A stretch of DNA of 64,000 nucleotides from Candidatus Magasanikiibacteriota bacterium. Its GTDB lineage: Bacteria > Patescibacteriota > Patescibacteriia > Magasanikbacterales > GWA2-37-8. Every line of letters starts with the position of its first letter. Position 1 is the first letter of the stretch. Where the stretch lies: positions 1,162 to 65,161 of the forward strand of contig JACPGS010000007.1 of assembly GCA_016189025.1 (NCBI GenBank), written 5' to 3'. A program made the position numbers and the translations under genes. Shown here piece by piece: positions 1-27,753 of this stretch. The notes beneath the pieces were generated by a model. The model saw only the letters and a program-made list of their open reading frames with translations. It did not search any database and had not been told where the DNA came from.

Positions 1-1152
1 CGACCGATTCAGGATGGTCTGCGAATGGCGCAGCGACCCGACCGAGCGGTAGCGCACGCCGCGGTACGCGGGATGCTTAAGGATATTGCCGGAAAACAGC
101 GGCCGGGTCTGAATGCGATGATCTTCCAGATAGCGCACCAGGGTATTGCGGTCAAACGGCGCCTCTGATTTAATCGTTACCGGAAACGCCAGCCAGTTAA
201 CCCGCGTGCTTGGGAGCGTTTCCGGCAGATAAAACCATTCGGGATACTGCGCTAAGAAATTATAAATCCGCTTAAAAGCGCGGCGACGTAAGGCCAAGAA
301 TCCGGACAAGCGATCCAGTTGCGCCAGGCCAAAAGCCGCCTGCATCTCGGTGGGGCGGAAATTATAGCCCAGGCCGACAAAAACAAAAGCGCTGTCGTAG
401 GGCCGGCCGTCTAACTTAAAGGTAGCGAGCCGCGAGCGGATTTTTTGATCGTGGCGGGAAATGCCGCGGCCCCAGTCGCGCAACACCCGGGCGCGCTCGC
501 AGAGCGCCTGGTCATTAGTCATCAGCATGCCGCCGGCGCCGCCGGCAGTAATCACGTGCGAAGCGTAAAAGCTGGTGGTAACAATATCGCTCCAGCGTCC
601 CGAGGGCGCCCCGTTAATGGTGCCGCCGATGGTGTCGCAGCTGTCTTCAATCAAAAGCAGCCGGCGCCGGCGGCAGAGGGCGCGCAATCGCGGCAAGTCC
701 GCAAAATTGCCAATTAAATGCGGCACCATTAAGGCCGCAGTAGTTTTGGTAATCGCCCGCTCCACCGCCGCCACATCAATTACGTAAGAAGGAGTTACGT
801 CCACAAATACCGGCGTAAACCCCAGCTGGACAATAGGGCTCGCCGTAGTATTAAAAGTACAGGCCGGGGTAATCACTTCAGCGCCGCGCGGCAGATTACT
901 CGCCGCGAGCGCCAATAAATTGGCCGAGGAGCCGGAATTAACGAACAAGCCATAGCGCTTGCCGAAGAGCCGGGCGACTTTAGTTTCAAACGCCGCTGTA
1001 ATCTTGCCGGTGGTCAGCCAGCGCTGCCGGAGCGCTTGCTCTACCGCCCGCCCCTCGTGCTCGCCAAACGCATCGCCGCCGTTCGGCGCATACCACAGCC
1101 AGTCTTGGCCGGGCACAAAACGTTTGCGGGCGATGAGCGAGGGCAGGGGCAT
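1..1152 (-). CDS. DegT/DnrJ/EryC1/StrS-family PLP-dependent sugar aminotransferase/3-dehydrase (RfbH/DdhC-like); C-terminus runs off the left edge
   Basis: Manual reverse-strand translation from ATG at 1152..1150 gives MPLPSLIARKRFVPGQDWLWYAPNGGDAFGEHEGRAVEQALRQRWLTTGKITAAFETKVARLFGKRYGLFVNSGSSANLLALAASNLPRGAEVITPACTFNTT..., typical of the DegT/RfbH family. It is not in the ORF track because the stop lies outside the window. Confidence 0.75.
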   Translation of the reverse strand, partial: MPLPSLIARKRFVPGQDWLWYAPNGGDAFGEHEGRAVEQALRQRWLTTGKITAAFETKVARLFGKRYGLFVNSGSSANLLALAASNLPRGAEVITPACTFNTTASPIVQLGFTPVFVDVTPSYVIDVAAVERAITKTTAALMVPHLIGNFADLPRLRALCRRRRLLLIEDSCDTIGGTINGAPSGRWSDIVTTSFYASHVITAGGAGGMLMTNDQALCERARVLRDWGRGISRHDQKIRSRLATFKLDGRPYDSAFVFVGLGYNFRPTEMQAAFGLAQLDRLSGFLALRRRAFKRIYNFLAQYPEWFYLPETLPSTRVNWLAFPVTIKSEAPFDRNTLVRYLEDHRIQTRPLFSGNILKHPAYRGVRYRSVGSLRHSQTILNRS

Positions 1153-1155
1153 AAG

Positions 1156-2214
1156 TCAATGCAGTTCAATCTTCCCGCCCTCGGTTTCAATCGGCACTAC
1201 TCGCATCCACAGTTTGCTGCGCCACCAGTCTTCGTTTGCCCGATACCAGTCAATGGTCTGGCGGAGCCCCTCGCGAAAACTCACCTCGGGTTGCCAGCCC
1301 AGCACCCGCTGGATTTTGCCGGTGTCGGCAGTATGGCGGAACACCTGTCCAGGCCGATCGCCGACGTTTAACGCGTATGAAGTAAAATTAATCTCCGATG
1401 CCGCCCCGCCCGCCATCTCCTGCAGAATCAGCTCGGCAATTTGGCGGATGGCAATGCCGGCGCCGGCGCCGACATTAAACACTTCGCCCACCACCAAACC
1501 GGCGGGCGCCAGTGCCGCTAGTTCAATCGCCCGCGCCAAATCCGACACATAACTGAAGTCGCGCTGGCTCTCCCCCGTGCCATGCACCGTCAACGGCTCG
1601 CCCAAAATGCAGCTGGTGATAAAGCGCGGAATCACTTTCTCCAGGTGCTGACGCGGCCCGAACATATTAAAGGGCCGGATAATCACCGCCGGAATTTTAT
1701 AGGTAAGATAGTAAGCCATCACCAGCCGGTCGGCGCCGGCCTTGGCCGCGGCATAAGGACTCTGGGGAATTAAGGGATGGTCCTCGTTCATCAAAGGCTG
1801 CAGCGCCGTGCCGTATACCTCGGAAGTGGAAATGTGAATAAAACGCTCCACGGTGTCGCGGTGCGCCGCCACCGCATTGGCCACCCGCTGGGTGCCAATC
1901 ACGTCGGACTCAAAAAACGGACTGTCGTCGTGAATGGAGCGCGTGACATGCGTTTCCGCGGCAAAATGAATAACGATGTGCGATTGCGCCACTAATTGCT
2001 CTACCACCTTGGCATTGCGCACGTCGCCGTAAATAAAACGAAAGTTAGGCGCGCTGGCAATACGGCTGGGGATATTGCGAAAATCACCGGCATAAGTCAA
2101 AGCATCCAGCACTAAGTAGCGCCACTCGGGATGGCGGGTAAAAAAATAATCCAAAACATAGCTGCCGATAAATCCGGCGGCGCCGGTCATCAAAACGGTT
2201 TTAGTCGGCTCCAT
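1156..2214 (-). CDS. NAD-dependent nucleotide-sugar 4,6-dehydratase/epimerase (RfbB / dTDP-glucose 4,6-dehydratase-like)
   Basis: 352 aa. It has a GAAGFIGS Rossmann motif, LDALTYAG, HFAAETHV and the HISTSEVYG catalytic region of extended SDR sugar dehydratases. Confidence 0.75.
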   Translation of the reverse strand: MEPTKTVLMTGAAGFIGSYVLDYFFTRHPEWRYLVLDALTYAGDFRNIPSRIASAPNFRFIYGDVRNAKVVEQLVAQSHIVIHFAAETHVTRSIHDDSPFFESDVIGTQRVANAVAAHRDTVERFIHISTSEVYGTALQPLMNEDHPLIPQSPYAAAKAGADRLVMAYYLTYKIPAVIIRPFNMFGPRQHLEKVIPRFITSCILGEPLTVHGTGESQRDFSYVSDLARAIELAALAPAGLVVGEVFNVGAGAGIAIRQIAELILQEMAGGAASEINFTSYALNVGDRPGQVFRHTADTGKIQRVLGWQPEVSFREGLRQTIDWYRANEDWWRSKLWMRVVPIETEGGKIELH

Positions 2215-2218
2215 AAAA

Positions 2219-4030
2219 TTATTGGGGAAGATAATTTACGCTATAAATAGCATAAAAATCATCGGCATATTCCGGCCGCAAGCCGGTCTGATTATACCGC
2301 TCCCCGCCCGCTGGGTCAAGCTCTTTATTGTGGACGACATAGGTAACATTATAGCGGCGCAACGATTCGGCCGGGCGCACTTTTACTTCGGCAACATAGC
2401 GCTTAAATAAATCAATAAAATACTGCTCTCCGCGCCAGGAAACGGCCGTCGCCAATTCGCCGCACGGCCGCCCCAGGCGCGGCAGCTGCAGCAGCCAGCA
2501 AATTTTAACGGCGCGGTTATGCGTGCGATACTGATGCACGGCATTACCGACGCCGGCGTAAGTCTGAAAATCCCGCTCCAGATATTCCGGCGTCAATTCT
2601 TTAAATAGACTAGCGACCAAATAGCGGTCCTCTGCCTCGCGCGACGACAACAGATGCAAAATGCCTCCATTGGCAAAGAGCACGTAATGTTTGGTGAGCG
2701 CCGGAATATAGCTGGAGAGAGGATCGGCAGGGCCGGTCAACACTACCTGGGGTTTGGGCGCGGCCTGCTCCAGCCATTGGAGGGCTGGCAAGGAGTGGCG
2801 AAACCGCTCGTAGAGCGCTGCGGTATCATTGCGGGAGCGGAAAAACGACCAGTAGTGGCGGGCCAGGTAGCCCAGGCCAAGAATACTAAACACGAATAAT
2901 GCCAGCAGCAAATAACGCCGGGCACGATTTAAAACCCGCCAACCATCCCGATCTTTTATCGCTAATGCCAGGTAAGCCACCAATGCTAACGGCTGCCAGA
3001 CGGTCATAAAGCGGGAAATGTGCCCGGGCAATTCCAGGTCTTTGCCGGTAATGATGTTGCTGAAAGTTACTCCGATTAAAGCCAACCCGCTGCCAAGAAA
3101 AGTATAGAACGCGGTTCGCGCTAGCGAATTATCTCGCCAGTGATTGAAGAAGCGGTAGGTCAGCCACCATAGCCCTACCAGCGCCGCCACGCCAAAACTG
3201 GTATAAACCGCCTCGGCCATCGGCAGGCGGGTCTGCACCAAACCAATGCGCTCCATAGTTTCCCAGTAATAAGGATGCTGCAGTTGTCGGACGGTATAAA
3301 TAATCATCGGCAACGACAAAACAATCACTCCGGCTGCCATTAGCAACAGGCGCCGGAGGAGCAGCGTGCGCTGCCGCCGCGTGAACAAAAAAATTAAACC
3401 GGCCAGCACTAACCAGGCCAGCGCTACCTGGGCCAGGTAGGTATAAACGTAAAAAGTACCGGCGGCGGACAAAACAAAAAATACCTGCCGCGCCCGCGCG
3501 GTTGGTTGCTTAAACCACACAATAAACGACAGCAGTAGTAGTAGCCAAAAGGGAAATACGGTCTGCATGGAAACCGGCGTAATGATAATAAAGTATCCTT
3601 GGGCAAAGGTTAGCAACGCCCCGAGAGCGCTTCCCCATTTAGACACCCCCAACTGCGACAAAATCAAATAGGAGAAACAGATAAATACGGCAGACCAAAT
3701 CGCAACGTTGAGGAGGATAGTCGCGGCGAGCGGCAGCCCGGCAAACAAAGGCAGGGCGGCCAGCCAGTCGGCCACAAAAAACGCCGGCGCCGGATCGCGG
3801 TTATGCTCCTTAAAATACGGATTGCCGATAAAAGGAAACCCGTCCTTAATTTCGCGCAGCCGCGCGTTATAATAAGTGGAGCCGTAAGTGTGATGCGCCA
3901 GCAAGGCTAAAATTTCGCCGCGCGACCACTGGCGCACCTGGTAGGCCGCCACTATTCCCGGCAGGGCGGCCAGCAGGATAGCGACTGCCGATAAGCCGAT
4001 TAAAAATTTAAGGTGTGATTTCATAATCAT
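2219..4030 (-). CDS. polytopic membrane protein with a large C-terminal soluble domain (putative glycan polymerase/transferase; function unknown)
   Basis: 603 aa with about 10 hydrophobic segments followed by a soluble ~250-aa tail. It sits at the 3' end of the glycan locus. No confident family match from sequence alone. Confidence 0.4.
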   Translation of the reverse strand: MIMKSHLKFLIGLSAVAILLAALPGIVAAYQVRQWSRGEILALLAHHTYGSTYYNARLREIKDGFPFIGNPYFKEHNRDPAPAFFVADWLAALPLFAGLPLAATILLNVAIWSAVFICFSYLILSQLGVSKWGSALGALLTFAQGYFIIITPVSMQTVFPFWLLLLLSFIVWFKQPTARARQVFFVLSAAGTFYVYTYLAQVALAWLVLAGLIFLFTRRQRTLLLRRLLLMAAGVIVLSLPMIIYTVRQLQHPYYWETMERIGLVQTRLPMAEAVYTSFGVAALVGLWWLTYRFFNHWRDNSLARTAFYTFLGSGLALIGVTFSNIITGKDLELPGHISRFMTVWQPLALVAYLALAIKDRDGWRVLNRARRYLLLALFVFSILGLGYLARHYWSFFRSRNDTAALYERFRHSLPALQWLEQAAPKPQVVLTGPADPLSSYIPALTKHYVLFANGGILHLLSSREAEDRYLVASLFKELTPEYLERDFQTYAGVGNAVHQYRTHNRAVKICWLLQLPRLGRPCGELATAVSWRGEQYFIDLFKRYVAEVKVRPAESLRRYNVTYVVHNKELDPAGGERYNQTGLRPEYADDFYAIYSVNYLPQ

Positions 4031-4217: not shown

Positions 4218-4227
4218 AATAAAAACT

Positions 4228-5115
4228 CTATTTCTTGCGCGCCAGCAAAAAAAAGTTATCGCGCAGATTAAGCGAGAGCGAACGCCGGCCCCAGGCTGAC
4301 TGCTGGGCCCGGCGCGCCAGCGACGGCCAGGGCCAGTATGGTTGCCAGCGGGCGATCGTTGCCAATAGATAAGCAACCGTAAATCGCTTACCGATTTTTT
4401 CTGCCGGCAATACGGCAAATCCTAAAGCAGATAACAGCGCCGACAGATTCCGCGGATTAAAATAAACCAGGTGTTCCGGCGGCACTAACTGGTGCCAGAA
4501 ACGCCCGAGGAGCAACGCATACCAGCTGCCGGCGTCCGGAGTATTGATCGCCAGAATTCCTCCTGGCTTCAGCAAAACTAAAACCCGCTCCAGAGCAGCC
4601 TGGGGGTTAGGCAGATGCTCAATCACATCCCACAGGGTAATAACATCAAAATAATTTTCGGCCCCGGTCACCGTATCCAGGGTGCCGGTTTGGACGTCTA
4701 ACCCCTGCGCCCGCCCCCGCCCGGCGGCATAATCCGAAGGTTCCACACCACTCCCCTGCCAGCCGCGCTCGCCGGCTAATTTAACAAAATATCCGGTCGC
4801 GGCGCCCACATCCAACAGCCGCCCCCGCGCCGGCAGCAGGCGCTCTAAGCGATCCAAATATTGTAAAAAGGTACCCCGCATCGCCGCTTTGTCGGCATCG
4901 TAATCAGAATAGCCAAAACCATGGCGGCCGCCGGCAAAATACTGCTCGCCATAGAGCCCGGACCAATCGGGCTCCGGCCAGGGAAAGACAAAACGAGCGG
5001 CACAGTCCTGGCAGCGGTAAATCCGGCAGTTATTTTTAACAACAAAAAATTTACTACGGCCACTGCCGCAGACCGGACAAGGGGAAATTATTGGTTGCTC
5101 CAAATCATCTGCCAT
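4228..5115 (-). CDS. class I SAM-dependent methyltransferase with N-terminal Cys4 zinc-ribbon
   Basis: Likely start is MADDLEQPIISPCPVCGS...CQDC at 5115. It carries LLDVGAATGYF (motif I) and LKPGGIL. The track ORF extends upstream into the neighbouring gene. Confidence 0.7.
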   Translation of the reverse strand: MADDLEQPIISPCPVCGSGRSKFFVVKNNCRIYRCQDCAARFVFPWPEPDWSGLYGEQYFAGGRHGFGYSDYDADKAAMRGTFLQYLDRLERLLPARGRLLDVGAATGYFVKLAGERGWQGSGVEPSDYAAGRGRAQGLDVQTGTLDTVTGAENYFDVITLWDVIEHLPNPQAALERVLVLLKPGGILAINTPDAGSWYALLLGRFWHQLVPPEHLVYFNPRNLSALLSALGFAVLPAEKIGKRFTVAYLLATIARWQPYWPWPSLARRAQQSAWGRRSLSLNLRDNFFLLARKK

Positions 5116-5795
5116 GGCGCTAAAATGGCTTCGCGAATAATATGGCCGGAAATTTTGGATTCGCCGGTGCGGCGATTGCGGAAAGTAATCGGCAGTTCGG
5201 CAAACCGCGCCGCCGCCCGCCACAGGCGGTATTTGAGCTCAATCTGAAAAGCATAACCCGAGGCGCTGAATTGCCTTAAGTCAAGCTGGCGCAAGAGCCT
5301 GGTGGCAAGGGCATTAAACCCGCCGGTGCAGTCCGCCACCGGCAGCCGGGTAATGGAACGCGCATACCAATTGCCGCCGCGGCTTAAGAGGCGCCGCCAG
5401 CTTTCCCAGCCGATTAATTTGCCACCCGGCACGTAGCGCGAACCAACGACCACATCAGCGTTCGCGCGCGCCGCGATTAAACCGGGCAGCGCCGCCGGAT
5501 CGTGCGACAAATCCGCATCCATCATTACTATCGTCTCTACTTCTGGATCGCGCAAAACTTCAGCGAAAGCATGGCGATAAGCCGGTCCCAGGCCCTCCTT
5601 GCGCTCGCGCCGCAATACGGAAAGACGCGGAAATTGGGAACGCAAGGAGAGCGCCAGCCCGGCGGTGCCGTCCGGCGAATTATCGTCTACTATCAGTACG
5701 CGCGCTTCCGGGAGAGAACTAAAAATTCCGCTAAGCAGCGGCGGCAAATTCTCGCGTTCGTTATAGGTGGGAACGACAACGGTAACTGGCGACAC
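5088..5795 (-). CDS. GT2 polyprenyl-phosphate sugar synthase (Dpm1-like dolichol/undecaprenyl-phosphate mannosyl/glucosyl-transferase)
   Basis: VVVPTYNERENL, IVDDNSPDGT, MDADLSHDP and a VVGSRY motif are typical of the Dpm1/GtrB family. Confidence 0.8.
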   Translation of the reverse strand: MSPVTVVVPTYNERENLPPLLSGIFSSLPEARVLIVDDNSPDGTAGLALSLRSQFPRLSVLRRERKEGLGPAYRHAFAEVLRDPEVETIVMMDADLSHDPAALPGLIAARANADVVVGSRYVPGGKLIGWESWRRLLSRGGNWYARSITRLPVADCTGGFNALATRLLRQLDLRQFSASGYAFQIELKYRLWRAAARFAELPITFRNRRTGESKISGHIIREAILAPWQMIWSNQ

Positions 5796-5798
5796 AAA

Positions 5799-6944
5799 TT
5801 ATTTATTCACCGCGGCTAAAATGATGGCGGCCCGCGCCTGCCAGCTAAACTGCCGGCTCAACCGGCGCGAATTTTCCGCCAGTATAGCACAACGCGCCCG
5901 GTCTGCCAACAAATTGGCAAGGCTTCTAGCTAGGCTGGCCGGGTCATCGGGCCTAAACCACGCCGTGGTTTCTTCTGAGAGCACCTCGCGCAGCGCCGGG
6001 ACGTCCGCGGCAATAATCGGCCGCCCGGCGGCCAGATATTCAAACAGTTTAAGCGGCGAGGTATAGCGCGCGCCAATGTCAGTGTGCGCGCTGTTCGGCA
6101 GCACTAATACATCGGCGGCTGCTAGCCACCGCGGGATACGCTCCGGGCTCTGCCAGGGCACAATAGTCAGCTGGGGATTACTGTAGCGCTGCTGAAAAAC
6201 AGCTGCTTCAGCCGCGCTCCCGCCCACTAAATAAATCTGTGCCTTGCTGGCAACCGGTAAATGAGTGGCCGCAGCAGCCAAAGTATCTGCCCCTTTCCAA
6301 GAATAAAGATGGCCGGTGTAAACAACAATCGGCTGGTCCAGGGGCAAACCCAGTTCCCGGCGACATTCGGCCTGGCTGGGCAATCCCGCAAACATTTCTA
6401 AATCAACCGCGTCGCGGGCAATGGTGATTTTGCCAGCGGGGATTCCTATCTTCACTAGCGCTTCTTTCAGGCCGGCGCTAATCACAATAATTCCCTGGCA
6501 GCGCTCCCAGGTGCGCCGGTGGAACCCGGTTATCCGCTGCGGCAGGGTGTGGAGCTCCAGATATACCGGCTGGAGGCGGCGCGCCAGGAACCAGGCAATG
6601 ATGCTATCGCGAGTATAATAAATGCCAGGCGGGGCTGTCGCCAAATACCGTCGCGCCGCGCGGTAAAAAGTATAGCTCAAAATGAAAAAGCCTACCCTCC
6701 CCCACCCCCCGCTCGTTACCAAATCAAGCGCCGGCAGGCGGACAAGGGGAAACCTGGGCGCCGCCTGAAAAAATTCAAACGGATCAACGGCGGAATCAAC
6801 GCGCCGATCAGGCACCAGCATAGTCAACGGCGCCCCGGCCGCGGTCAGCGCCGCCGCGGTCTTGATAATCTGCCACCCATGCGCCCGGTCGCTGGGCAGG
6901 CGGATGGTGGCGAGGTAGTAAAAGGGCCGGGGCATAGGAGGCAA
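5799..6944 (-). CDS. GT4 glycosyltransferase (Glycos_transf_1)
   Basis: 381 aa. The C-terminal half has VVYTGHLYSWKG, LVGGS and LVLPNSAHTDIGARYTSPLKLFEYLAAGRPIIAADVP, typical of GT4. Confidence 0.7.
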   Translation of the reverse strand: MPPMPRPFYYLATIRLPSDRAHGWQIIKTAAALTAAGAPLTMLVPDRRVDSAVDPFEFFQAAPRFPLVRLPALDLVTSGGWGRVGFFILSYTFYRAARRYLATAPPGIYYTRDSIIAWFLARRLQPVYLELHTLPQRITGFHRRTWERCQGIIVISAGLKEALVKIGIPAGKITIARDAVDLEMFAGLPSQAECRRELGLPLDQPIVVYTGHLYSWKGADTLAAAATHLPVASKAQIYLVGGSAAEAAVFQQRYSNPQLTIVPWQSPERIPRWLAAADVLVLPNSAHTDIGARYTSPLKLFEYLAAGRPIIAADVPALREVLSEETTAWFRPDDPASLARSLANLLADRARCAILAENSRRLSRQFSWQARAAIILAAVNK

Positions 6945-7139: not shown

Positions 7140-7166
7140 AAAGAGCCCTTCGGGGCTGTTTTTTGT
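7140..7166 (-). terminator. hairpin AGCCC-TTCG-GGGCT with flanking T/A runs, immediately after the DUF3800 gene stop
   Basis: The sequence aaaagagcccttcggggctgttttttg is a tetraloop hairpin with U-tracts on both strands. Confidence 0.5.
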
Positions 7167-8080: not shown

Positions 8081-8731
8081 TTACTCCTTCACTTGGTAGA
8101 GCGCCAAATGGAATAAATCCAGGGGCGCCGGGAGGGGAAGTTTTTTCAGCTTTAATAGTTCAAACCTGGAAGCGCGGATAATACGCTCTACGCCGCGGGC
8201 ATTGTGATAATGCACGCCGGCGCCAGGGCCGTGCTCCATCGAATAAGTTCCCTTGAGCACAAAGCGCAGGGTTTTGTACCAGGCCGACTCCACCGGCTCG
8301 CTGGTAATCAGGTAGCCGCCGGGCTTAAGAACGCGCCGGAATTCGGCGAGAGGCGGCAGCAAGTCGGCGATGTGCTCCAGCGTATCCAAAGTAACAATAG
8401 CGTCAAAGGAATGGCTGGGGAATTGCAGGGCATTCAGGTCCTGCACGGCAAAGTGCGCCGGCGCGAGCTTTTGCTTAAGTTCCCCGACTGACGGGTTCAG
8501 ATCAATCCCCCAAATCTCGCCGCCGGTCCAGCCCGATTTCAGTACTAGCTCAATAAATGCTCCCTGGCCGCAGCCGACGTCTAAAAAATTCCTCGCTTCA
8601 GTTTGCCGCAGAAAATCACGGGCAATCGTCAGGCGCCGATGGAATAACCAGCGCACCAGCGGATTGGCCGATTGATACTCGGGCACGATTTCGTGGAGTC
8701 CGATGTCAAATTTTTGGCGCGTGTCCAGCAT
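8081..8731 (-). CDS. class I SAM-dependent methyltransferase
   Basis: FLDVGCGQGAF (motif I), LKPGGYL and an IVTLDTLEHI-type post-I motif. Confidence 0.7.
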   Translation of the reverse strand: MLDTRQKFDIGLHEIVPEYQSANPLVRWLFHRRLTIARDFLRQTEARNFLDVGCGQGAFIELVLKSGWTGGEIWGIDLNPSVGELKQKLAPAHFAVQDLNALQFPSHSFDAIVTLDTLEHIADLLPPLAEFRRVLKPGGYLITSEPVESAWYKTLRFVLKGTYSMEHGPGAGVHYHNARGVERIIRASRFELLKLKKLPLPAPLDLFHLALYQVKE

Positions 8732-10179: not shown

Positions 10180-10184
10180 AATTT

Positions 10185-18881: not shown

Positions 18882-18885
18882 AAAT

Positions 18886-20118: not shown

Positions 20119-20234
20119 CGCCGGCGGAATGCGGAATCAAAATGAGTAGCCAAGCGATAACAAAAAAGACGCGGCAATAATTATTGCCAGCAGCCGATTA
20201 TTGTTAATTAAACGCCGCCAAGACTGAAACATAG

Positions 20235-20422: not shown

Positions 20423-21415
20423 TTAAATCGCACGTAATGCTTTAACCCACTGCTCTTGATTATTGATCGGCAAAATTTGTACTGATTCCCCGGGCAGCAC
20501 CTCATAATTCGCCACGCCCACGTCATTCATAATCACGCGAGTACCCGCGGCCATCGCCTCCATTACGGCTAGACCATAACCTTCACTTAAACTGGGGAGC
20601 AGCAGGGCGTCAACTGTTTTAAGATAGCTCCACGGGTCAGCGGTCCACCCTTCCAGCTTGACATTATTCTCCAGCCGCAATTTTTTAATCAAACGGCGTA
20701 TCCGCGCTTCCGCGCGCCCGGCCCCGGCCAAAAGCAACAGCGCCCGCGGCCGCTCGCGTACCACGGCGGCGAATGTTTTAACCAGCCAAGGCACGTTCTT
20801 TACCGGATCTAAGCGCCCTAGCCACAAAAAAATAGGGCCAAACCCGGGATATTTTTCGCGCGCGGAAAATCGCGGTGCCCAAGCGCGAATCGCTGCCGTA
20901 TCCACCGCAATCGGCTGCACCGTAATTTTATCTGCCGCCACTCCCAAGGAGAGTACGCCGCGCTTTACCCGCTCCCCCACTGCCCGCACCCAAGTAGCGC
21001 GGCGCAAGACGAACTTGCCCAAGTGCCAGCGCAACTGCTCCCCTAGGCTGCCGTGGCGATAATAAGCCGACAGATAAAAATCGCCATGCGCCTGCACCGT
21101 AAGCGCGGCGCCGGTTTCGTATTTCAAAAACCAACCTATCAGCCCGGTTCCAAACGGATCCTGGGCGGTAATCGCGGGAATCTGCCGCTCCTGAATCAGC
21201 CGCTTGCCGCTGGCAAGAAGCCGAAAAAATTGCTGCGGTTTGTTGCCGCCGGTGGATTGCACGTGCACCGTGGGGCTTAAATCCAAGGCCGCCCGCTCCG
21301 GCGCGGGAATAATAATAAATAATTCATCCGTCTCTCCATATTGCCGCATCCGCCCGGCGGCGCGCGAGTGCGGATCCAAAATAGAGCGATCCAGGCTAAT
21401 CATTAGTTGACGCAT
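20423..21415 (-). CDS. GT4 glycosyltransferase
   Basis: FLWLGRLDPVKN, LLLAGAG and LLLPSLSEGYGLAVMEAMAAGTRVI are typical of GT4. Confidence 0.7.
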   Translation of the reverse strand: MRQLMISLDRSILDPHSRAAGRMRQYGETDELFIIIPAPERAALDLSPTVHVQSTGGNKPQQFFRLLASGKRLIQERQIPAITAQDPFGTGLIGWFLKYETGAALTVQAHGDFYLSAYYRHGSLGEQLRWHLGKFVLRRATWVRAVGERVKRGVLSLGVAADKITVQPIAVDTAAIRAWAPRFSAREKYPGFGPIFLWLGRLDPVKNVPWLVKTFAAVVRERPRALLLLAGAGRAEARIRRLIKKLRLENNVKLEGWTADPWSYLKTVDALLLPSLSEGYGLAVMEAMAAGTRVIMNDVGVANYEVLPGESVQILPINNQEQWVKALRAI

Positions 21416-21482
21416 AGTTTATCCACACAAATACACTTGACAAATTTCTGCTTTCATTTATAATAATAATATTCCTACGAAA

Positions 21483-21527
21483 AAAACCCTTATGCGGTTC
21501 TGTCCGCATCGGGGGTTTTTTCTTTTT
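21483..21527 (-). terminator. bidirectional rho-independent terminator hairpin ATGCGG-N6-CCGCAT flanked by A7 / T6
   Basis: aaaaaaacccttatgcggttctgtccgcatcgggggttttttc. It overlaps the 3' end of the NYN gene. Confidence 0.55.
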
Positions 21528-22017: not shown

Positions 22018-22039
22018 AATTAAAATCAAGCTGGCGTCA

Positions 22040-23224
22040 TCAACTGGCGCAAACCTGCTGCAGGGCCTGCCTAGTCAGGGCAATCATGTTATCACCTGAT
22101 AAACCCTTATTGGGTAATAATTGCTGTCTATTTTTAATAATTATCTCTCTTGTTTTGTTATCAGTAGTAAGCTTTAGTATTCCTGAAATCATTACCTCTT
22201 TTTCGTCCGGCTTAAAAAGCAAGCCGTCAGGGAATTGATAGCGACGTTGTAACAGTTCAACATGCGCGACAATGTTGCTCGCAAACACCGGACAACCCAC
22301 TAACCACGATTCTAATATCACATGCGGTAAACCTTCATAACGACTATTAAGAACCAGCAGACCGGATTTGGCCATTTCGCGCAACGCTTGATCATGCGAC
22401 AAAGGGCCGAGCATCTGTACGGCGGATTCTAATTGTAACTGTTGAATTAAAGATTGAATCCGTCCACGTTCTGGTCCATCTCCAATAATGACCAACTGAT
22501 AACTACTGTCCCGACGAAGTAGTTCTGGCATTATTTCTACCATGGTCATTACTCCTTTCCACGGCATGAGCCGACCAATAATAATTATCCTCTTTAGATT
22601 TTTTGGCGAGGAGGCTAATTCAGTTAGAAGTTCGGTCGGTAAAAATACCTCATTATATATAACCCGCACTCGCTCCGGATTAACCCCCCACCCGATCACC
22701 AATTCTTCCAGATATTCACTTGGTACAATGACCAAACTAGCATGTTTAGTGACCGCTATTTCTTTATTCCGTAAAGATCCAATTTTACCACGATACTGAC
22801 GTTTTTGGAAGTCGTCAATCCCCTCTTTTACTAGCCCCAGCACCTGCCCCTGCTCCCAGGCATAATCGCCCACCACCTTCACTGCCAGCTTTTTCTTTCT
22901 CGGACGTAGCAGGCAAGCCAACCGCGCTGGCCAGCCAGCGTTAACAGGCCCCATTGCATACACAATATCTGTCCGCCAAATGAGTACCCACAAGAGCAAA
23001 AAGTATTCACCATAGCGAAACAGCATATTTTTAAAATGAACCCGATATAGTTTAACTTTCGGATCAAGCACGCCCTTATCTGATTGCTTATTCAAGGATA
23101 CAATTTTTACCTTTATTCCTTGCTTTACCAATTCATTCGCCAGCGTAACGCAGTACGTCGCCGGCCCACCGGATTCGGGCGGAAAAATATCAGCGGCAAT
23201 AAGTAACCTCATATAATAGATCAA
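22040..23224 (-). CDS. GT4 glycosyltransferase
   Basis: IIIGRLMPWKG, LVIIGDGPE and LVLNSRYEGLPHVILESWLVGCPVFASN. Confidence 0.7.
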   Translation of the reverse strand: MIYYMRLLIAADIFPPESGGPATYCVTLANELVKQGIKVKIVSLNKQSDKGVLDPKVKLYRVHFKNMLFRYGEYFLLLWVLIWRTDIVYAMGPVNAGWPARLACLLRPRKKKLAVKVVGDYAWEQGQVLGLVKEGIDDFQKRQYRGKIGSLRNKEIAVTKHASLVIVPSEYLEELVIGWGVNPERVRVIYNEVFLPTELLTELASSPKNLKRIIIIGRLMPWKGVMTMVEIMPELLRRDSSYQLVIIGDGPERGRIQSLIQQLQLESAVQMLGPLSHDQALREMAKSGLLVLNSRYEGLPHVILESWLVGCPVFASNIVAHVELLQRRYQFPDGLLFKPDEKEVMISGILKLTTDNKTREIIIKNRQQLLPNKGLSGDNMIALTRQALQQVCAS

Positions 23225-23922
23225 TCATCTATGCTCTTCCAAAATAGCTTGTCCAGCACCACTCCGGTGTTAGCATCAATATATAACTCTTCGCCGTTAG
23301 CCTCATCGCGAGAATCCGATAAGATATTGGAAACCCCCCAGATATAAGTATTATATCGAACATGCCAATTAAACCACGCCTCCCGCCCTTTAATTCCCCC
23401 GCTCAATCCAGCGGCTTCGGCAATGGCGAGCGCCTGCTGTTTGTCAATGGGAAATTTGCACTCTCTAGGTTCCCTCACACAATCCGGCAAACCAAATACG
23501 TCGCGTTCAACAATCAATTGTCCGCTACTATCGAGCGCAAATTCAATAAGCTGATCTTTGACAAAAGGTCGGTCGGGAATAGTAAAAGAATAAACCATTA
23601 AATAATAGGGCTTTTGTAAAAACTGCAAACAAAAAGAGGGATTTTTGATACAGTGTTCATTCGCCGGATAAAGCCTGCTTTTCTGCGTACTAAAAGTGAC
23701 GTACTGGCGAAAAAATTTTTCATCAATTTTGGAAATAATAAAACGATCGGCTTTCGCTATAATAGCTGCCGGCATTGGTTCATGCTTCTCTTCGCGGAAG
23801 CTCCTAGTACTGAATAATGGTGGGCGTAAAATATCGTACCAATACAAACCGAATACGAACCCAATAACCAAAACAATAAATAGTACCACTGCCCTTAACA
23901 ATAACTTAATGCGCAGAGTCAT
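23221..23922 (-). CDS. hypothetical membrane-anchored protein
   Basis: 233 aa with a single N-terminal TM (LLLRAVVLFIVLVIGFVFGLYW). No recognisable family. Low-GC context. Confidence 0.35.
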   Translation of the reverse strand: MTLRIKLLLRAVVLFIVLVIGFVFGLYWYDILRPPLFSTRSFREEKHEPMPAAIIAKADRFIISKIDEKFFRQYVTFSTQKSRLYPANEHCIKNPSFCLQFLQKPYYLMVYSFTIPDRPFVKDQLIEFALDSSGQLIVERDVFGLPDCVREPRECKFPIDKQQALAIAEAAGLSGGIKGREAWFNWHVRYNTYIWGVSNILSDSRDEANGEELYIDANTGVVLDKLFWKSIDD

Positions 23923-25115
23923 AATTGGGAAAAAATTACTTGCATATCTCTGGCGATGCCTTGCCAGATATACTTCTCGGCGATGAGCTTTCGACTATTC
24001 TCCCGCAACCGCTCGGCTAATAATTTATCGTCGAAAATCTTTTTAATCTTCTCCGCAATGTCTTTAGGGTCGCCGACTTGGCAGAATAAACCGGTCTCTC
24101 CGTCTTGCAAAAAATCCGGAATACCGCCGACTGGCGTCGCCACCACCGGCAGACCAGCGGCCATTGCTTCCAAAAAAGCGCTGCCCAGGCCCTCGGAACG
24201 GCTGGGCCGACAGAATACATCGCTGTCCCACAAATACTTAGGCAATTCATCGTGCGATAAACTTCCTAAAAAATGCACTCGCTCGGCTAAATGCAATTGC
24301 TTGGCCAAACTCTTCAATTTGCCTTCTAGGGGACCGCTGCCAGCGATCAATAAATGAACGGATGGCGGTAAAAACTGCATGGCTTTTATGAGATCGGCTA
24401 CCCCATTCTTTTTTACCAAACGCGAGGCGGTAATTACTAAAGAAACATCATTCCGAGCAAAGGGAGCGCTAGCGACCGTAGTCGAGGAATCTCTTAATTT
24501 AGCGAGAAGGATTCCTCCACTCCCCCGACTTAGTCGGGGTCGGTCGGAATGACAGTTGAACCGCTCAATATCTACACCGTTGGGAACCACCTCCACCGGA
24601 CATTTCGCGCCGAGTTGGCGCGCCCAGGCCGCCAAATAATTGCTAATCGCCTGAATCCGATCGGCCCGCTGAAAAATTTGTTTGAAATACGGCCAGCACC
24701 ACCAGACATGTTTATAAATCTGCCACCGACTATCGCCCTCTTGCAGGGTCAGCAAAAAGGGAACGGCCGGATTTCTTTTTTTATAACGCAAAGCAGCGAA
24801 TCCCCCGTAGCTTGCCATAATCGCCCACACCAAATCAAACCGGCCTAACTTCCTGGCTTCCTGCCAACCAACTTTAACGAGCCGGTACTTATCCCAGTGA
24901 TTGTCCTCTCCGATGCGGTGCACCTCAATATTTCCGATACGTTCAATCTCCGGCAATTTTGCATCTAACCGCGCGGTGAGCATCACAAACTCAAACTCGC
25001 CGCCGAGTCGATCGGTAATTTCTTTTACGGCAAACTCGGCGCCGCCCACCAGTGGCAAATAGGCAGTGGAAAAAATCAGAACCCTTTTAGCGGGCAAAGG
25101 CGACATAGTTACCAC
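23919..25115 (-). CDS. GT4 glycosyltransferase carrying an in-frame family-2 repeat insertion
   Basis: Has PLVGGAEFAV and LLIAGSGPLEGKLKSLAK...FCRPSRSEGLGSAFLEAMAAGLPVVATPVGG. The extra segment HSDRPRLSRGSGGILLAKLRDSSTTVASAP is encoded by the repeat at 24485..24560. Confidence 0.7.
   Translation of the reverse strand: MVTMSPLPAKRVLIFSTAYLPLVGGAEFAVKEITDRLGGEFEFVMLTARLDAKLPEIERIGNIEVHRIGEDNHWDKYRLVKVGWQEARKLGRFDLVWAIMASYGGFAALRYKKRNPAVPFLLTLQEGDSRWQIYKHVWWCWPYFKQIFQRADRIQAISNYLAAWARQLGAKCPVEVVPNGVDIERFNCHSDRPRLSRGSGGILLAKLRDSSTTVASAPFARNDVSLVITASRLVKKNGVADLIKAMQFLPPSVHLLIAGSGPLEGKLKSLAKQLHLAERVHFLGSLSHDELPKYLWDSDVFCRPSRSEGLGSAFLEAMAAGLPVVATPVGGIPDFLQDGETGLFCQVGDPKDIAEKIKKIFDDKLLAERLRENSRKLIAEKYIWQGIARDMQVIFSQL
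24485..24560 (-). repeat. family-2 palindromic repeat (core CCCCGACTAAGTCGGGG) inserted in-frame in a GT4 CDS
   Basis: Its reverse complement, ...CCGACCGACCCCGACTAAGTCGGGGGAG..., matches the intergenic copies at 40678..40785 and 56508..56571. Confidence 0.65.
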
Positions 25116-26800
25116 GCGACCGCGCCGGAAGAATCGGCCGTAACGCGATAAACCTTAAACGCCACCTGGCCGTCGGAGCGGCTGATTAACGCCGGCTGAA
25201 AACCAGCGGCCACCAGACGCTGTTCGGTCTGGTCCGCGGCAGGAGTGCGAAATTTTGGCAAATCCAGCGGCGCGTACTCGGTGGCTTTAATAAAATAAAA
25301 CGCTTCCAGATTAAGCTGCGACAATAACTCTGCTTCATTCAAAGAAAACGCCGGGAAATTATTATAAAATCGCCGGCGCTCAAACAGCCAGACGCGCGAG
25401 AACCAGTTAATGTTCCCGTCAAACAAAATAACACGGCTATGGGCAGCGCGCTCCTGCCGCTCGGCGGCGCTGGCTACCAATAAATAACGCCGGAGACTGT
25501 TCTTTTTGATTTTTAAGCTCTGTTGGGGATCAAAATAGGTTAAACTTCGGTCCATCACAGCAATCTGATCTAAATACCGATCCAACTGCGCTACTCCAAA
25601 GTTAATTGGCTGCTCCGATTCTCGCCACCAACCCGGGGCGCCAAACCCTTTGGGCAATAAGTTAGAATTGGCTACAAATACCATCAAATAGACCGACAAA
25701 ATTGCTACTCCTCCTAACCACCAAGAGCGGCGCCACTTCTTTTGGCAATACTGCCGCCCTAAATCAATTAAAAACACTGCAACTACCGGCGCTAAAAATA
25801 TGCCGTATAAATTGCGTGCGCCAATCAAAGTGTCTTCAATCACCAGCCAAACCACTGCTAAACCGGTCAGCAGCAATCCCGGCCGGCGCCGCGCCAGCGT
25901 AAAACTAGCGGCCAATAAAACCAATAAGGCATAGGGAAACGACAAACCATAAATTGCCGCCCGGCCGTTTACCAATATACCCTCCCACCACTCGGGGGCA
26001 ATACCCCCCAGTTTCCAAGGGCTGGACTGCCCCAACAGACGCACCAACTGTAAGCTGAAATGGCCGGTCGCCTGATACATCATCAAATTGTAAATTATTA
26101 CTGGCGCCAACAACAGCAGCGCTAACCCTGCCGCATAATAAAGCTGGCGCCGACGAAAAAGCTCGCGCCGTCTTAACGCTAAATAAACAAAAAAGGCGGG
26201 AATAATAAAAAGAGCGGTAAACTTAGTTTCCAACATTAATCCGACCGCCAGGCCTAATTTCCACCATTCCCGCGCCGGATTATCCAAAAAACGTAAGAAA
26301 TAATACCAGGCCAGAGAGATAAAAAATAACACACCGGCCTCTAAAAAAGTGGTTCTCCCCTGCCAGATAAAATGGGAATTGAGGGCCAACAATAAAGCGG
26401 CGAGGAGCGCGGTGGGGCGATCAAAACAGCGCTTGACCCAGGCATAAGTAAGGACAATCGTCCCCAGTGACATTAACCCAAAGGGTAATTTGGCGAGCCA
26501 CAAGCTAGGGTGCCAGCGCAAAAAAGCATGCTGAATTAAAAACAAAAGCAGCGGGTGATCGTGCCAGGATAAATTAGCCCACCAGGGGAAGCGACTAAAC
26601 CACTGCAGCGGCGTGGACTGCGACTCGTCGTCGCCGAACATGTGATCAACTAATCCGATAGAGCGCGTGCTGTAAATGGCGTCGTCGCCGATCATATCTA
26701 CGGTCGTAATCCGGAATAACAAAAAAAACGCGGCTAGCGCCAAAATGAGGAGCAACCGCTTGTCGTACCGTTCGATCATTCTGGTTAGGGGGCTAATCAC
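25109..26800 (-). CDS. GT-C fold membrane glycosyltransferase (PMT/ArnT-like, GT39/83)
   Basis: 563 aa and multi-TM. The first loop has GDDAIYSTRSIG (D-D/E motif). Confidence 0.55.
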   Translation of the reverse strand: MISPLTRMIERYDKRLLLILALAAFFLLFRITTVDMIGDDAIYSTRSIGLVDHMFGDDESQSTPLQWFSRFPWWANLSWHDHPLLLFLIQHAFLRWHPSLWLAKLPFGLMSLGTIVLTYAWVKRCFDRPTALLAALLLALNSHFIWQGRTTFLEAGVLFFISLAWYYFLRFLDNPAREWWKLGLAVGLMLETKFTALFIIPAFFVYLALRRRELFRRRQLYYAAGLALLLLAPVIIYNLMMYQATGHFSLQLVRLLGQSSPWKLGGIAPEWWEGILVNGRAAIYGLSFPYALLVLLAASFTLARRRPGLLLTGLAVVWLVIEDTLIGARNLYGIFLAPVVAVFLIDLGRQYCQKKWRRSWWLGGVAILSVYLMVFVANSNLLPKGFGAPGWWRESEQPINFGVAQLDRYLDQIAVMDRSLTYFDPQQSLKIKKNSLRRYLLVASAAERQERAAHSRVILFDGNINWFSRVWLFERRRFYNNFPAFSLNEAELLSQLNLEAFYFIKATEYAPLDLPKFRTPAADQTEQRLVAAGFQPALISRSDGQVAFKVYRVTADSSGAVAW

Positions 26801-26811
26801 AGACTAAAAAA

Positions 26812-27753
26812 TCACTTACCTAAACGTTGACGGAAGTCGGCAATGGTTTTCTGCAAACCCTTCTCTAACCCGACGGTCGGCTGCCAACCGAGCAGGGTTT
26901 TTGCTTTAGTGATGTCGGGGCAGCGGCGGCGGGGGTCGTCCTGGGGTAAGGGCAAGTAAGTAATAATACTAGAGGAACCAGTGAGAGCAATAATTTTTTG
27001 GGCGAGTTCGGTAACGGTTTTCTCTTCCGGGTTACCTACATTAATCGGGCCGGTAATCTCCGGCGGGGAATTCATCATTTTAATTAGTCCCGCCACCATA
27101 TCTTCCACATAACAAAAACTCCGCGTTTGCGAACCGCTGCCGTAAATAGTAATCGGCTTGTCCTGTAAGCCCTGGAAAATAAAATTAGAAATCACCCGGC
27201 CATCATTAAAGGCCATCCGCGGGCCATAAGTATTGAAAATCCGCACGATCTTTATTCCGGTGCCGTGCGTCCGATGATAATCAAAACAAATGCTTTCGGC
27301 ATAACGCTTGCCCTCGTCATAACACGCGCGCGGGCCAAAAGGATTAACATTGCCGTGATATTCCTCGGTTTGCGGATGCACTTCCGGATCGCCATACACT
27401 TCGGAGGTAGAGGCCTGCAAAAAGCGCGCCTGATGCCGGCGGGCGATTCCCAACATATTCATTACCCCGATGGTACTAGTCTTGATAGTATGAACCGGAT
27501 TAAGTTGATAATGAGGGGGAGAGGCGGGACAAGCCAGGTTATAAATCTGGTCTACGGATTTATCAAGATAGAGCGGTTCTACAATATCGTGCTTAATAAA
27601 AATAAACTTCGGGTTGGCCATTAACGAAACGATATTTTGTTCAGCGCCGGTAAACAAATTGTCAACGCAAACAACTTCATCGCCGTGGACGATGAGCTGA
27701 TCGCAAAGATGAGACCCGATAAATCCGGCGCCGCCGGTTACTAAAATCCGCAT
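26812..27753 (-). CDS. uxs: UDP-glucuronate decarboxylase (UDP-xylose synthase)
   Basis: [45 protein letters not shown]. Confidence 0.85.

Follow-up and report, generated by a model that had tools for sequence, protein, structure and literature searches.

The described gene systems closest to the locus reported here are the surface-layer (S-layer) glycosylation (slg) loci of Gram-positive bacteria, represented by the wsaA-wsaP cluster of Geobacillus stearothermophilus, located beside the S-layer gene sgsE, and the wsfA-wsfH cluster of Paenibacillus alvei. The predicted O-oligosaccharyltransferases (O-OTases) of these clusters, WsaB and WsfB, contain the Wzy_C domain; WsfB, as well as PglL, has a tetratricopeptide repeat (TPR) motif at its C-terminus, and wsaB is immediately preceded by the gene of a small TPR protein, WsaA (PMC2943079). 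The S-layer genes sgsE and sgtA lie near their own slg clusters and are transcribed alone, the clusters carry WsaP/WsfP and Wzm/Wzt, and in P. alvei a branching step uses lipid-phosphate-glucose in a cluster with no flippase (PMC2943079). Here we describe a stretch of 64,000 nucleotides from a Candidatus Magasanikbacteria bacterium of the Candidate Phyla Radiation (CPR), hereafter the window, in which glycan genes and the gene of a giant Ig-like surface protein form a block of ~43 kb.

Several other systems share parts with this locus. The three-component systems GtrA/GtrB/GtrC, CsbB/GtcA/YfhO, ArnC/ArnEF/ArnT and GacI/GacK/GacL have been described, and a GtrB-type family 2 glycosyltransferase (GT2) together with a transferase of the GT-C fold (GT-C) decorates glycans in many systems (PMC7389260, PMC11127046). 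In streptococci, GtrB and a GT-C (GtrB/PgtC2, Pgf) glycosylate Ser/Thr-rich protein regions directly (PMC12041528). The protein O-mannosyltransferases (PMTs, family GT39), such as yeast Pmt1/2/4 and the actinobacterial Pmt with Ppm1, combine a Dpm1-like GT2 donor enzyme, a GT-C fold and an acidic pair after the first transmembrane helix (TM1). Family 4 glycosyltransferases (GT4s), polyprenyl-phosphate-sugar synthases with no transmembrane (TM) helix and several GT-Cs together make up the logic of mycobacterial/actinobacterial lipoglycan and arabinogalactan assembly. In respect to the cell envelope, groundwater CPR cells observed by cryo-transmission electron microscopy have an S-layer and no outer membrane (bioRxiv 10.1101/2020.05.14.094862); because CPR cells have no outer membrane, the reading of the locus as a lipopolysaccharide/O-antigen cluster was set aside.

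Organisation and conservation of the locus

Positions 1 to ~43,300 of the window are read here as one conserved cell-surface module of an ultra-small, monoderm groundwater CPR bacterium, namely an slg-like locus with a protein as the acceptor (probability of about 45%). In more general terms, it is well supported that the locus encodes a lipid-linked glycosylation system, in part extracytoplasmic, with ties to a major surface protein. Its layout matches the Gram-positive slg loci more closely than PMT-type mannosylation. Every long open reading frame (ORF) of the window was scanned with Pfam and NCBIfam. The genes around the surface protein are the following:

28962..31034, minus strand: Wzy_C ligase with a C-terminal TPR domain (paralogue 1, Wzy1); Wzy_C (PF04932) 3e-15 and TPR; HNx9GxxG at residue 344
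31053..31745, minus strand: membrane-anchored TPR protein; TPR families; in many loci also located between the ligase genes
31843..34086, minus strand: Wzy_C ligase with a C-terminal TPR domain (paralogue 2, Wzy2); Wzy_C 2e-17, RfaL 1.5e-11
34281..34310, minus strand: strong intrinsic-terminator-like hairpin, directly 3' of the surface-protein gene; perfect 13-bp stem with 11 GC pairs, T-runs on both strands
34479..38270, minus strand: secreted protein of 1263 aa, with a conserved N-terminal domain and then about six or seven Ig-like domains of ~155 aa; candidate S-layer/major surface protein, no Pfam match
38444..39769, minus strand: membrane anti-sigma-like protein; weak DUF5667 match; position conserved in related loci
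39991..40542, minus strand: extracytoplasmic function (ECF) sigma factor; Sigma70_r2, Sigma70_r4_2
40974..43326, plus strand: HTH_17-like gene of 123 aa (40974-41345) and DUF11-like membrane protein of 573 aa (41605-43326), divergent from the ECF gene

Four points of the slg loci are reproduced in the window: a Wzy_C O-OTase candidate, a TPR motif or TPR neighbour, an apparently separately transcribed surface-protein gene nearby, and a predicted lipid-phosphate-sugar step with no flippase. Cytoplasmic glycosyltransferases and NDP-sugar genes are common to the window and to both reference clusters. The differences from the slg loci are the absence of a WsaP/WsfP-type phosphoglycosyltransferase and of a Wzm/Wzt exporter, the presence of two Wzy_C-TPR paralogues, a set of three GT2s and four GT-Cs where slg has one branching pair, and an ECF sigma/anti-sigma pair directly upstream of the protein gene. 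The organism is also different, being a CPR bacterium, and the glycosylation of its protein is proposed here from the genes.

Related loci were collected by two routes. Fifty genome loci were found via the profile of the GT-C encoded at 10185-11888 (GT-C B, see below), and 84 loci were found via the big protein and labelled by phmmer with the window proteins as queries. The loci with GT-C B hold the same kind of cluster throughout the Parcubacteria-type lineages, with a recurring block that begins with a GT4 of the 27815 type on the opposite strand and continues with GT4, GT4, GT4, GT-C B, GT2, GT4, GT-C C and GT2. Around the big protein the recurring order is the HTH_17 and DUF11-like genes (divergent), ECF, anti-sigma, big protein, Wzy_C-TPR (Wzy2), small TPR, Wzy_C-TPR (Wzy1), GT4 in the opposite orientation, UDP-xylose synthase (UXS), and three further GT4s. 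An ECF sigma gene lies at most 3 kb upstream of the big protein in 50 of 57 loci, a Wzy_C homologue begins no more than 2 kb downstream of it in 30 of 44, and one or more glycan genes are present ~9-10 kb or less downstream in 19 of 22. The full order is still seen where the big proteins are no more than 32-40% identical. The number of Wzy_C-TPR paralogues, two in the window, varies from one to four elsewhere. The HTH_17/DUF11-like pair is found also in the loci L054, L055 and L057 and in many metagenome loci, and is kept with the ECF/anti-sigma/big-protein module in distant genomes.

Since the gene order is kept across related loci, the functional unit extends to ~43.3 kb, beyond position 27,753, at which a preliminary description of this DNA, made by a model from the letters and a list of ORFs, had closed it. 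The conservation of synteny that this description proposed to check is observed: the link between the glycan genes and the big protein is kept across Patescibacteria.

Wzy_C-TPR ligases and the surface protein

Among the glycan genes, those of the Wzy_C-TPR ligases show the tightest link to the surface protein. The residues R225, R300 and H350 do not vary among the Wzy_C-TPR homologues; all 56 homologues end in a soluble tail of 150 aa or more, and 47 of the 56 have H[NSQ]x9Gxx[GTY], which we take from the WaaL literature to be the ligase motif. From a manual count of the helices past the catalytic loop of Wzy1 and the positive-inside rule (the segments LLRRRVRTE and EPRRRFS being cytoplasmic), we infer that the TPR domain is extracytoplasmic. 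By analogy with the slg loci, the Wzy_C-TPR proteins are proposed to transfer a glycan from its lipid carrier to the surface protein; a protein acceptor is suggested indirectly by the lack of an outer membrane in CPR cells and by the fused TPR, the TPR neighbour and the nearby surface-protein gene, which recall WsfB and WsaA/WsaB.

The 1263-aa protein (34479..38270) begins with a signal/TM segment and is poor in charged residues and in Cys, and from about residue 250 it shows internal repeats with a period of ~155 aa. Its family comprises 635 clusters at E<=1e-30 in a set of 1.84 billion representatives, the full-length members having mostly ~1,150-1,350 aa, and is free of Pfam domains except for PG_binding_1, which replaces the N-terminal domain in some members. 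The AlphaFold2 (AF2) model of a 1195-aa homologue, P0097, has a pLDDT (predicted local distance difference test) of 83.8 and consists of a mixed N-terminal domain followed by an all-beta chain of sandwich domains, with the short linker PTTATSTP of the big protein modelled at low confidence. The Foldseek matches of the model are generic multi-Ig ones alone (PrgB Ig domains, alpha2-macroglobulin, integrin legs and the archaeal N. maritimus S-layer), with TM-scores of 0.1-0.15, and point to a chain of Ig-like domains but not to an S-layer protein in particular. The repeats and the model thus support the assignment of 34479..38270 as an Ig-like repeat surface protein. Ser and Thr account for 24% of its residues, in comparison to 9.8% in the other window proteins, and the enrichment is spread through the beta domains. 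The terminator hairpin after the gene fits a highly expressed, separately terminated gene.

For this part of the locus the preliminary description holds up well. The two Wzy/WaaL-like paralogues with TPR (28962 and 31843) are borne out by the Wzy_C and TPR matches, and the 1263-aa protein with Ig-like repeats by the ~155-aa periodicity and the AF2 model. The same protein had been called Thr/Ser-rich, which is true of its composition; it does not extend to a mucin-like tract of the type that PMT-type enzymes usually modify. The ligases had been treated as an appendix to the cluster, whereas in slg loci such proteins are the predicted protein O-oligosaccharyltransferases (PMC2943079).

The anti-sigma-like protein (38444-39769) ends in a Ser/Thr/Pro-rich tail (ISASTTLPLPVAPVTTMSSTLPTTTLPVGGG), which is presumably extracellular and may be another O-glycosylation site.

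Coupled GT2 and GT-C enzymes

The window encodes three GT2s and four GT-Cs:

5088..5795, minus strand: GT2 a, predicted polyprenyl-phosphate sugar synthase; PF00535 1e-25; best NCBIfam matches AglJ, PpgS and ArnC; no TM helix
12078..12797, minus strand: GT2 b, predicted polyprenyl-phosphate sugar synthase; PF00535 4e-32; AglJ/PpgS/ArnC-like
17014..17706, minus strand: GT2 c, predicted polyprenyl-phosphate sugar synthase; PF00535 6e-35; in the PDB, dolichyl-phosphate mannose synthase (DPMS) 5mlz 3e-18, ArnC 2e-13, GtrB (5ekp) 1e-8
2219..4030, minus strand: GT-C A, from a family of ~600 aa with no Pfam domain; named relatives all Patescibacteria; predicted GT-C fold
10185..11888, minus strand: GT-C B (PMT_2 superfamily); no Pfam match of its own, homologues carry PF13231 (PMT_2)
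18886..20232, minus strand: GT-C C (PMT_2); PMT_2 1e-11; in-frame TGA at 20139-20137, listed ORF 18886-20118
25109..26800, minus strand: GT-C D, the most PMT-like of the four; PMT_2 5e-20 (72.7 bits); PMT PF02366 37.9 bits against a cut-off of 22.7

The proteins encoded at 10185-11888, 2219-4030 and 34479-38270 have identical NCBI entries (HYV42_01150, HYV42_01110 and HYV42_01250, respectively), all annotated as hypothetical proteins of a Candidatus Magasanikbacteria metagenome-assembled genome.

The central point in respect to these enzymes is that they are coupled. In the window GT2 b adjoins GT-C B, while GT2 c is one gene away from GT-C C and GT2 a one gene away from GT-C A. In the related loci 32 of 52 GT-C B homologues have a GT2 as direct neighbour, in comparison to 15.7 +/- 2.9 (maximum 28) expected from 2000 within-locus shuffles of gene order. 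Natural fusions of GT2 with PMT_2 are also found, in the protein P0004 and in long ORFs of the loci L005 and L024. The adjacency statistics and the fusion proteins together show that the pairing is real and not due to chance. In a contig assembled by Logan (L001, SRR12113401, positions 323-3379) a protein 100% identical to GT-C B adjoins a Redoxin/AhpC-TSA gene instead of a GT2, so the locus has been rearranged between closely related populations.

The three GT2s have 235, 239 and 230 aa (a, b and c, respectively) and no TM helices; b and c are 46% identical, while a is 28% identical to both. All contain a DAD (D-x-D) motif (MMDADLSHDP, IQDADLEYDP). Their closest characterised relatives are lipid-phosphate sugar synthases, namely AglJ, PpgS, ArnC and Dol-P-hexose transferase in NCBIfam, and P. 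furiosus DPMS (5mlz), ArnC and GtrB (5ekp) in the PDB. As all the matches are under the equivalog cut-offs, they support the class of the enzymes and assign no sugar specificity; at this level the three GT2s are predicted polyprenyl-phosphate sugar synthases. With no C-terminal TM helices they fit the TM-less Ppm1/PpgS/DPM1 subtype and not GtrB/ArnC/CsbB.

All four GT-Cs are polytopic, have the GT-C fold and carry one or more acidic residues in the first extracytoplasmic loop. The relation to PMTs is clearest for GT-C D, with the invariant D39 in a GD[DE] motif after TM1; its profile matches yeast Pmt1 (7e-6), the PMT 9i5k (7e-5), Pmt4 (4e-4) and ArnT (0.096) among the PDB chains. No match to PDB chains was obtained with the single sequences of GT-C C and D or with the profiles of GT-C B and C, the D profile alone being productive. 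When the profiles are compared by hhalign, GT-C B aligns with D at 98% probability (6e-15) and has an invariant D39-E40 after TM1, and GT-C C aligns with D also at 98% and has an invariant Asp after TM1. The score for PF02366 is above gathering in 25109 alone and below it in 18886, 10185 and 2219, and PF16192 (PMT_4TMC) is detected in none of the four at E<=0.001. A PMT-style reading is thus supported by sequence for at most one GT-C, D.

GT-C A is different. None of the 50 retrieved members of its family has a Pfam domain, and the hhalign comparison with D gives a probability of 25%, i.e., no detectable relation, so its assignment comes from structure alone. The predicted fold is AftA/ArnT-like, the best structural match being the glycan arabinosyltransferase AftA, with both AftA and ArnT ranking above Pmt4.

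The gene of GT-C C is interrupted by the TGA at 20139-20137, where the homologues have Tyr; the upstream piece, beginning with the ATG at 20232, encodes TM1, which is therefore missing from the listed ORF. Recoding of the stop codon was rejected, as TGA terminates 8 of 43 window genes, and the interrupted gene is either a pseudogene or an assembly error.

In comparison to the described systems, the likeness to the three-component ones is that the GT2 would form a polyprenyl-phosphate monosaccharide and the GT-C would transfer the sugar outside, that the genes are adjacent, and that several modules can decorate one glycan. The window GT2s differ in lacking the C-terminal TM helices of GtrB, ArnC and CsbB, in which they resemble mycobacterial Ppm1/PpgS or human DPM1; a flippase of the GtrA, SMR or Wzx type is absent from the window, there are three to four modules in one locus, and one GT-C has no Pfam domain. 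With the PMTs the window shares the Dpm1-like GT2 donor, the GT-C fold and the acidic pair after TM1, GT-C D being similar also in sequence. It differs from the PMT and streptococcal systems in the lack of PMT_4TMC, in the three of four GT-Cs with no PMT-specific signal, and in the adjacent protein, which has no disordered Ser/Thr-rich tracts. The mycobacterial network (PimE, MptA/B, AftA-D, Emb, and Rv3779 with PpgS) has in common with the window the GT4s inside, the TM-less synthases and multiple GT-Cs outside, and GT-C A is nearest to AftA in structure. The sequence identity to these enzymes is only 10-12%, phosphatidylinositol, galactan and arabinan genes are missing from the window, and mycobacteria have nothing that corresponds to the Wzy_C-TPR ligases or to their association with a surface protein.

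Reading of the sequences of the related loci, by eye and with no family scan, revealed parts that are absent from the window: fusions of a GtrA-like domain with a GT-C-like membrane protein in 6 loci, fusions of HAD with a UbiA-type prenyl/phosphoribosyl transferase in 4, and a MOP flippase in 4 (examples among these loci are L029:5149-7338, L051:14444-15697 and L014:12052-13584).

Donor-sugar, GT4 and tailoring genes

The remaining glycan genes are the following:

1..1155, minus strand: DegT-family PLP/PMP (pyridoxal/pyridoxamine phosphate) enzyme, probable NDP-4-keto-6-deoxyhexose 3-dehydrase of the E1/ColD type; PF01041 8e-84; gene cut by the window start
1156..2214, minus strand: NDP-hexose 4,6-dehydratase (RfbB-like short-chain dehydrogenase/reductase); PF16363 2.5e-66; TIGR01181 303 bits, below the cut-off of 365
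4228..5223, minus strand: S-adenosylmethionine (SAM) methyltransferase; Methyltransf_23 3e-30; real start probably later than the listed ORF start
5799..6944, minus strand: GT4 glycosyltransferase; Glycos_transf_1, Glyco_trans_1_4; conserved in related loci
8081..8731, minus strand: SAM methyltransferase; Methyltransf_11 6e-20
8941..10260, minus strand: membrane-anchored SGNH/GDSL hydrolase or acyltransferase; Lipase_GDSL_2 3e-9; adjoins the GT-C B gene in the locus L002 too
12852..14717, minus strand: AsnB-type glutamine amidotransferase; Asn_synthase 1e-81; TIGR01536 429 bits, above the cut-off; recurs in related clusters
14722..15726, minus strand: GDP-mannose 4,6-dehydratase (Gmd); PF16363 6.5e-125
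15762..16989, minus strand: GT4 glycosyltransferase, frameshifted (listed ORF 15934); Pfam; break near 15985-16001
17709..18923, minus strand: GT4 glycosyltransferase; Pfam; kept beside GT2 c in related loci
20423..21415, minus strand: GT4 glycosyltransferase; Pfam; member of the recurring GT4 block
22040..23224, minus strand: GT4 glycosyltransferase; Pfam; member of the recurring GT4 block
23919..25115, minus strand: GT4 glycosyltransferase; Glycos_transf_1 1e-43; member of the recurring GT4 block
26812..27753, minus strand: UDP-glucuronate decarboxylase (UXS); 3e-125 to human UXS1 structures
27815..29005, plus strand: divergent GT4 glycosyltransferase; Pfam and synteny; starts the GT block in many genomes

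The enzyme at 1-1155 has RfbH as its best NCBIfam match (337 bits, under the cut-off), and among PDB entries E1 (3bcx, 1.7e-73) and ColD (2e-48) both score above perosamine synthase. Its motif SFYASH, as read by eye from the sequence, has His at the position of the Schiff-base Lys of aminotransferases. The E1/ColD likeness and the replacement of Lys by His point to a 3,6-dideoxyhexose in the glycan and not to an amino sugar; this sugar would probably be made by the enzyme together with the adjacent 4,6-dehydratase or Gmd. The SGNH/GDSL protein (8941..10260) is possibly an enzyme of glycan O-acetylation. The GT4 genes total seven (5799, 15934, 17709, 20423, 22040, 23919 and 27815). In the frameshifted one (15762-16989), tblastn with homologues splits over two frames, the last ~80 residues aligning in the other frame. 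NCBIfam placed none of the window GT4s in a specific pathway, all the matches being far under the cut-offs.

In general, the enzyme inventory of the preliminary description agrees with these results. Its three Dpm1/GtrB-like synthases at 5088, 12078 and 17014 have PF00535 matches and lipid-phosphate sugar synthases as relatives, the repeated GT2/GT-C pairing that it noticed is statistically confirmed, and a lipid-linked, extracytoplasmic glycosylation system is what the locus encodes in our view as well. The count of "three, possibly four" GT-Cs becomes four, with 2219 included, and that of eight GT4 genes becomes seven, one of which (27815-29005, plus strand) lies outside the interval to which the count referred. 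The two methyltransferases (Methyltransf_23, Methyltransf_11) and AsnB (TIGR01536 above cut-off) are present. From the proposed donor enzymes, Gmd, a true UDP-xylose synthase and the RfbB-like dehydratase stand, while the DegT "aminotransferase" looks like an E1/ColD-type 3-dehydrase. The HMM searches that had been suggested found PMT_2 in 25109 and 18886 and Wzy_C in both ligases, and no Pfam match in 10185 and 2219. The idea of PMT-like GT-Cs is retained for D, which leans towards PMT by PF02366 and Pmt1/Pmt4, and not for A, nearest to AftA, or for B and C, where PMT-specific signals are lacking; PMT_4TMC is missing throughout.

Two further genes located within the glycan cluster, a DUF3800 gene (7166-7792) and a NYN-domain gene (21490-22029), are missing from nearly all related loci, NYN being present only in L034. 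The GC content drops to 0.43 at 22000-24000, where the adjacent GT4 and a membrane protein of 233 aa are encoded. The rarity of the two genes and the GC dip suggest recent insertions or exchange.

Neighbouring genes

On the minus strand at 46101-48902, 8 kb from the big protein, a secreted protein of 933 aa with no Pfam match and 4.7% Cys is encoded. It contains mucin-like tracts at residues 35-82 (TGSSGTGTYTGTSG), 222-241 and 268-299 (TPTPTPTPTPT), and, judged by its sequence, resembles the usual substrates of PMT-type O-glycosylation more than the big Ig-like protein does. A thiol-redox/copper block follows at 49046-58896, comprising a DsbA-like protein, a Cu-type P-type ATPase with an HMA domain, an HMA-DsbD-cupredoxin fusion, another DsbD_TM protein, and then Lgt.

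Proposed pathway and alternative explanations

In the proposed pathway the donors would be produced in the cytoplasm by UDP-xylose synthase, Gmd, the 4,6-dehydratase with the 3-dehydrase, and AsnB, giving UDP-xylose, GDP-6-deoxyhexose derivatives, a 3,6-dideoxyhexose and amidated sugars. [quoted passage not shown] The glycan would be exported and then ligated to the acceptor by the two Wzy_C ligases, whose TPR domains are predicted to face outward, and the separate TPR protein may assist; the likeliest acceptor, we infer, would be Ser/Thr/Tyr of the adjacent 1263-aa protein. The three TM-less GT2s of the Dpm1/Ppm1/PpgS type would charge polyprenyl phosphate with single sugars, which the four GT-Cs would move outside the membrane, branching or decorating the glycan (the PMT-like GT-C D might alternatively act directly on Ser/Thr-rich linkers of secreted proteins). 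The methyltransferases and the SGNH enzyme would finish the glycan.

Several observations weigh against an slg-like locus with a protein acceptor. The family scans of the window gave no initiating phosphoglycosyltransferase, no Wzx or ABC (Wzm/Wzt) exporter and no GtrA-type flippase; a phosphoglycosyltransferase, a flippase and an LCP ligase were sought also among the conserved unlabelled neighbours of 130 related loci, where none of them, nor a Wzx/ABC exporter, is common. The initiating phosphoglycosyltransferase and the exporter may be encoded elsewhere in the genome. The profile of the Wzy_C membrane part matches WaaL (7tpg, 8e-13) and an O-oligosaccharyltransferase (9rmk, 7e-12) about equally, and the Pfam signatures PglL_A and Wzy_C_2 are absent from both window proteins, in which only Wzy_C and TPR families are found. 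In 14 of 44 loci the big protein is not followed by a Wzy_C gene. No 20-aa window of the 1263-aa protein reaches 55% S/T and it has no dense or mucin-like Ser/Thr tract; its S-layer identity is deduced from size, composition, fold and the abundance of the family, and the glycosylation of the family is likewise presumed. It is quite possible, if short of probable, that the product of the cluster is a glycopolymer of the wall or a lipoglycan (such as a secondary cell wall polymer, or a molecule similar to lipomannan/lipoarabinomannan) and not a protein glycan. The GT4s would then start on a membrane lipid or polyprenyl carrier inside, the GT-Cs would extend or branch the chain outside from polyprenyl-phosphate sugars, as PimE/Mpt/Aft/Emb do with Ppm1- and PpgS-made donors, and the Wzy_C proteins would polymerise or ligate the polymer; the link of the big protein to the cluster would reflect its anchoring to this polymer or its assembly on it. 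Such a lipid-anchored route has no need of the missing phosphoglycosyltransferase and Wzx/ABC exporter, the set of GT4s, TM-less Ppm1/PpgS-like GT2s and several GT-Cs is the actinobacterial lipoglycan/arabinogalactan architecture, and GT-C A is structurally nearest to the arabinosyltransferase AftA. As PG_binding_1 replaces the N-terminal domain in some homologues of the big protein, this end is probably a wall-binding module, and in Firmicutes the loci of S-layer-anchoring polymers adjoin S-layer genes. The UbiA+HAD genes of related loci are typical of pentofuranose three-component glycan systems (PMC11127046). On the other hand, an LCP-family ligase, a pyruvyl transferase and teichoic-acid-type genes were not found in the window or among the common neighbours, the GT4s match lipid-anchor glycosyltransferases no better than other GT4 families, and what lies closest to the big protein is a ligase-type Wzy_C with TPR and a separate TPR protein, the pattern described for S-layer O-OTases (PMC2943079).

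A protein acceptor is assumed also in the PMT model of the preliminary description, where each Dpm1-like/GT-C pair puts single sugars (mannose, xylose, deoxyhexose) directly on Ser/Thr of the surface protein, so that its glycosylation falls to the GT-Cs and not to the Wzy_C proteins. We consider this unlikely. The score of GT-C D above the PF02366 cut-off, and its profile matching yeast Pmt1/Pmt4 better than ArnT, fit the model; this PMT-specific signal is seen in one of the four GT-Cs alone and PMT_4TMC in none, with A resembling AftA/ArnT and B and C matching nothing PMT-specific. The acidic D-[DE] pair after TM1 of B and D and the invariant Asp of C at this place are also in line with it, as is the streptococcal precedent of GtrB and a GT-C acting on Ser/Thr-rich regions (PMC12041528). 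The big protein offers 24% Ser+Thr and the low-confidence PTTATSTP linker, but not a single 20-aa window with at least 55% S/T, the classic mucin-like tracts being located in 46101-48902 instead. Moreover, seven GT4s and two ligases are left with no role, and we know of no polyprenyl-phosphate synthase specific for UDP-xylose or GDP-deoxyhexose. Least probable of all, and in our opinion very improbable, is the lack of any functional link, i.e., a general exopolysaccharide (EPS)/capsule cluster beside the gene of an unrelated large adhesin. This would account for the 14 of 44 loci with no Wzy_C gene after the big protein and for the complete-looking locus L057, which has unrelated genes there, and an EPS cluster is known to matter for host interaction in a cultivated Saccharibacterium (PMC10633639). 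Nevertheless, genomes of ~1 Mb preserve this order even between lineages whose big proteins share only 32-40% identity, and chance adjacency at such a frequency is not credible.

Implications

CPR bacteria (Patescibacteria) represent a large share of bacterial diversity and live attached to other cells. Our search of the literature on CPR S-layer glycosylation and on Wzy_C proteins in Parcubacteria found nothing specific, neither the S-layer protein nor its glycosylation genes being named. The locus described here, interpreted as an slg-like system, is a concrete and widely conserved candidate for both, on which ~43 kb are spent in a genome type usually near 1 Mb. Every component belongs to an already known kind of enzyme. 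Five features appear to be new: a supra-operon found CPR-wide, the number of modules in it, a GT-C family with no Pfam domain, a locus that encodes neither initiator nor flippase, and control by an ECF pair of its own. The locus adds a GT-C family with a confident fold assignment from the predicted structure, and the natural GT2-GT-C fusions tie donor synthesis to transfer.

A broader generalisation can be offered only tentatively and is, in our estimate, rather doubtful: the Pfam-less family of ~1,250 aa might be the S-layer (major envelope) protein across a large part of Patescibacteria, O-glycosylated by a lineage-specific machinery of Wzy_C-TPR ligases and several TM-less GT2/GT-C modules (one with a GT-C of an unrecognised family), with no locus-encoded flippase or initiator and under a dedicated ECF sigma/anti-sigma pair. 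If this is true, the glycoprotein coat would be the surface that the episymbiotic Patescibacteria show to their hosts and phages. If the product is a wall polymer, these organisms would still have in this locus their main pathway for envelope glycans. If the surface protein is the acceptor, Gram-positive-type S-layer O-glycosylation would extend to a deep bacterial lineage, and the ligase, its TPR partner and the sigma factor would become handles for the study of host recognition.

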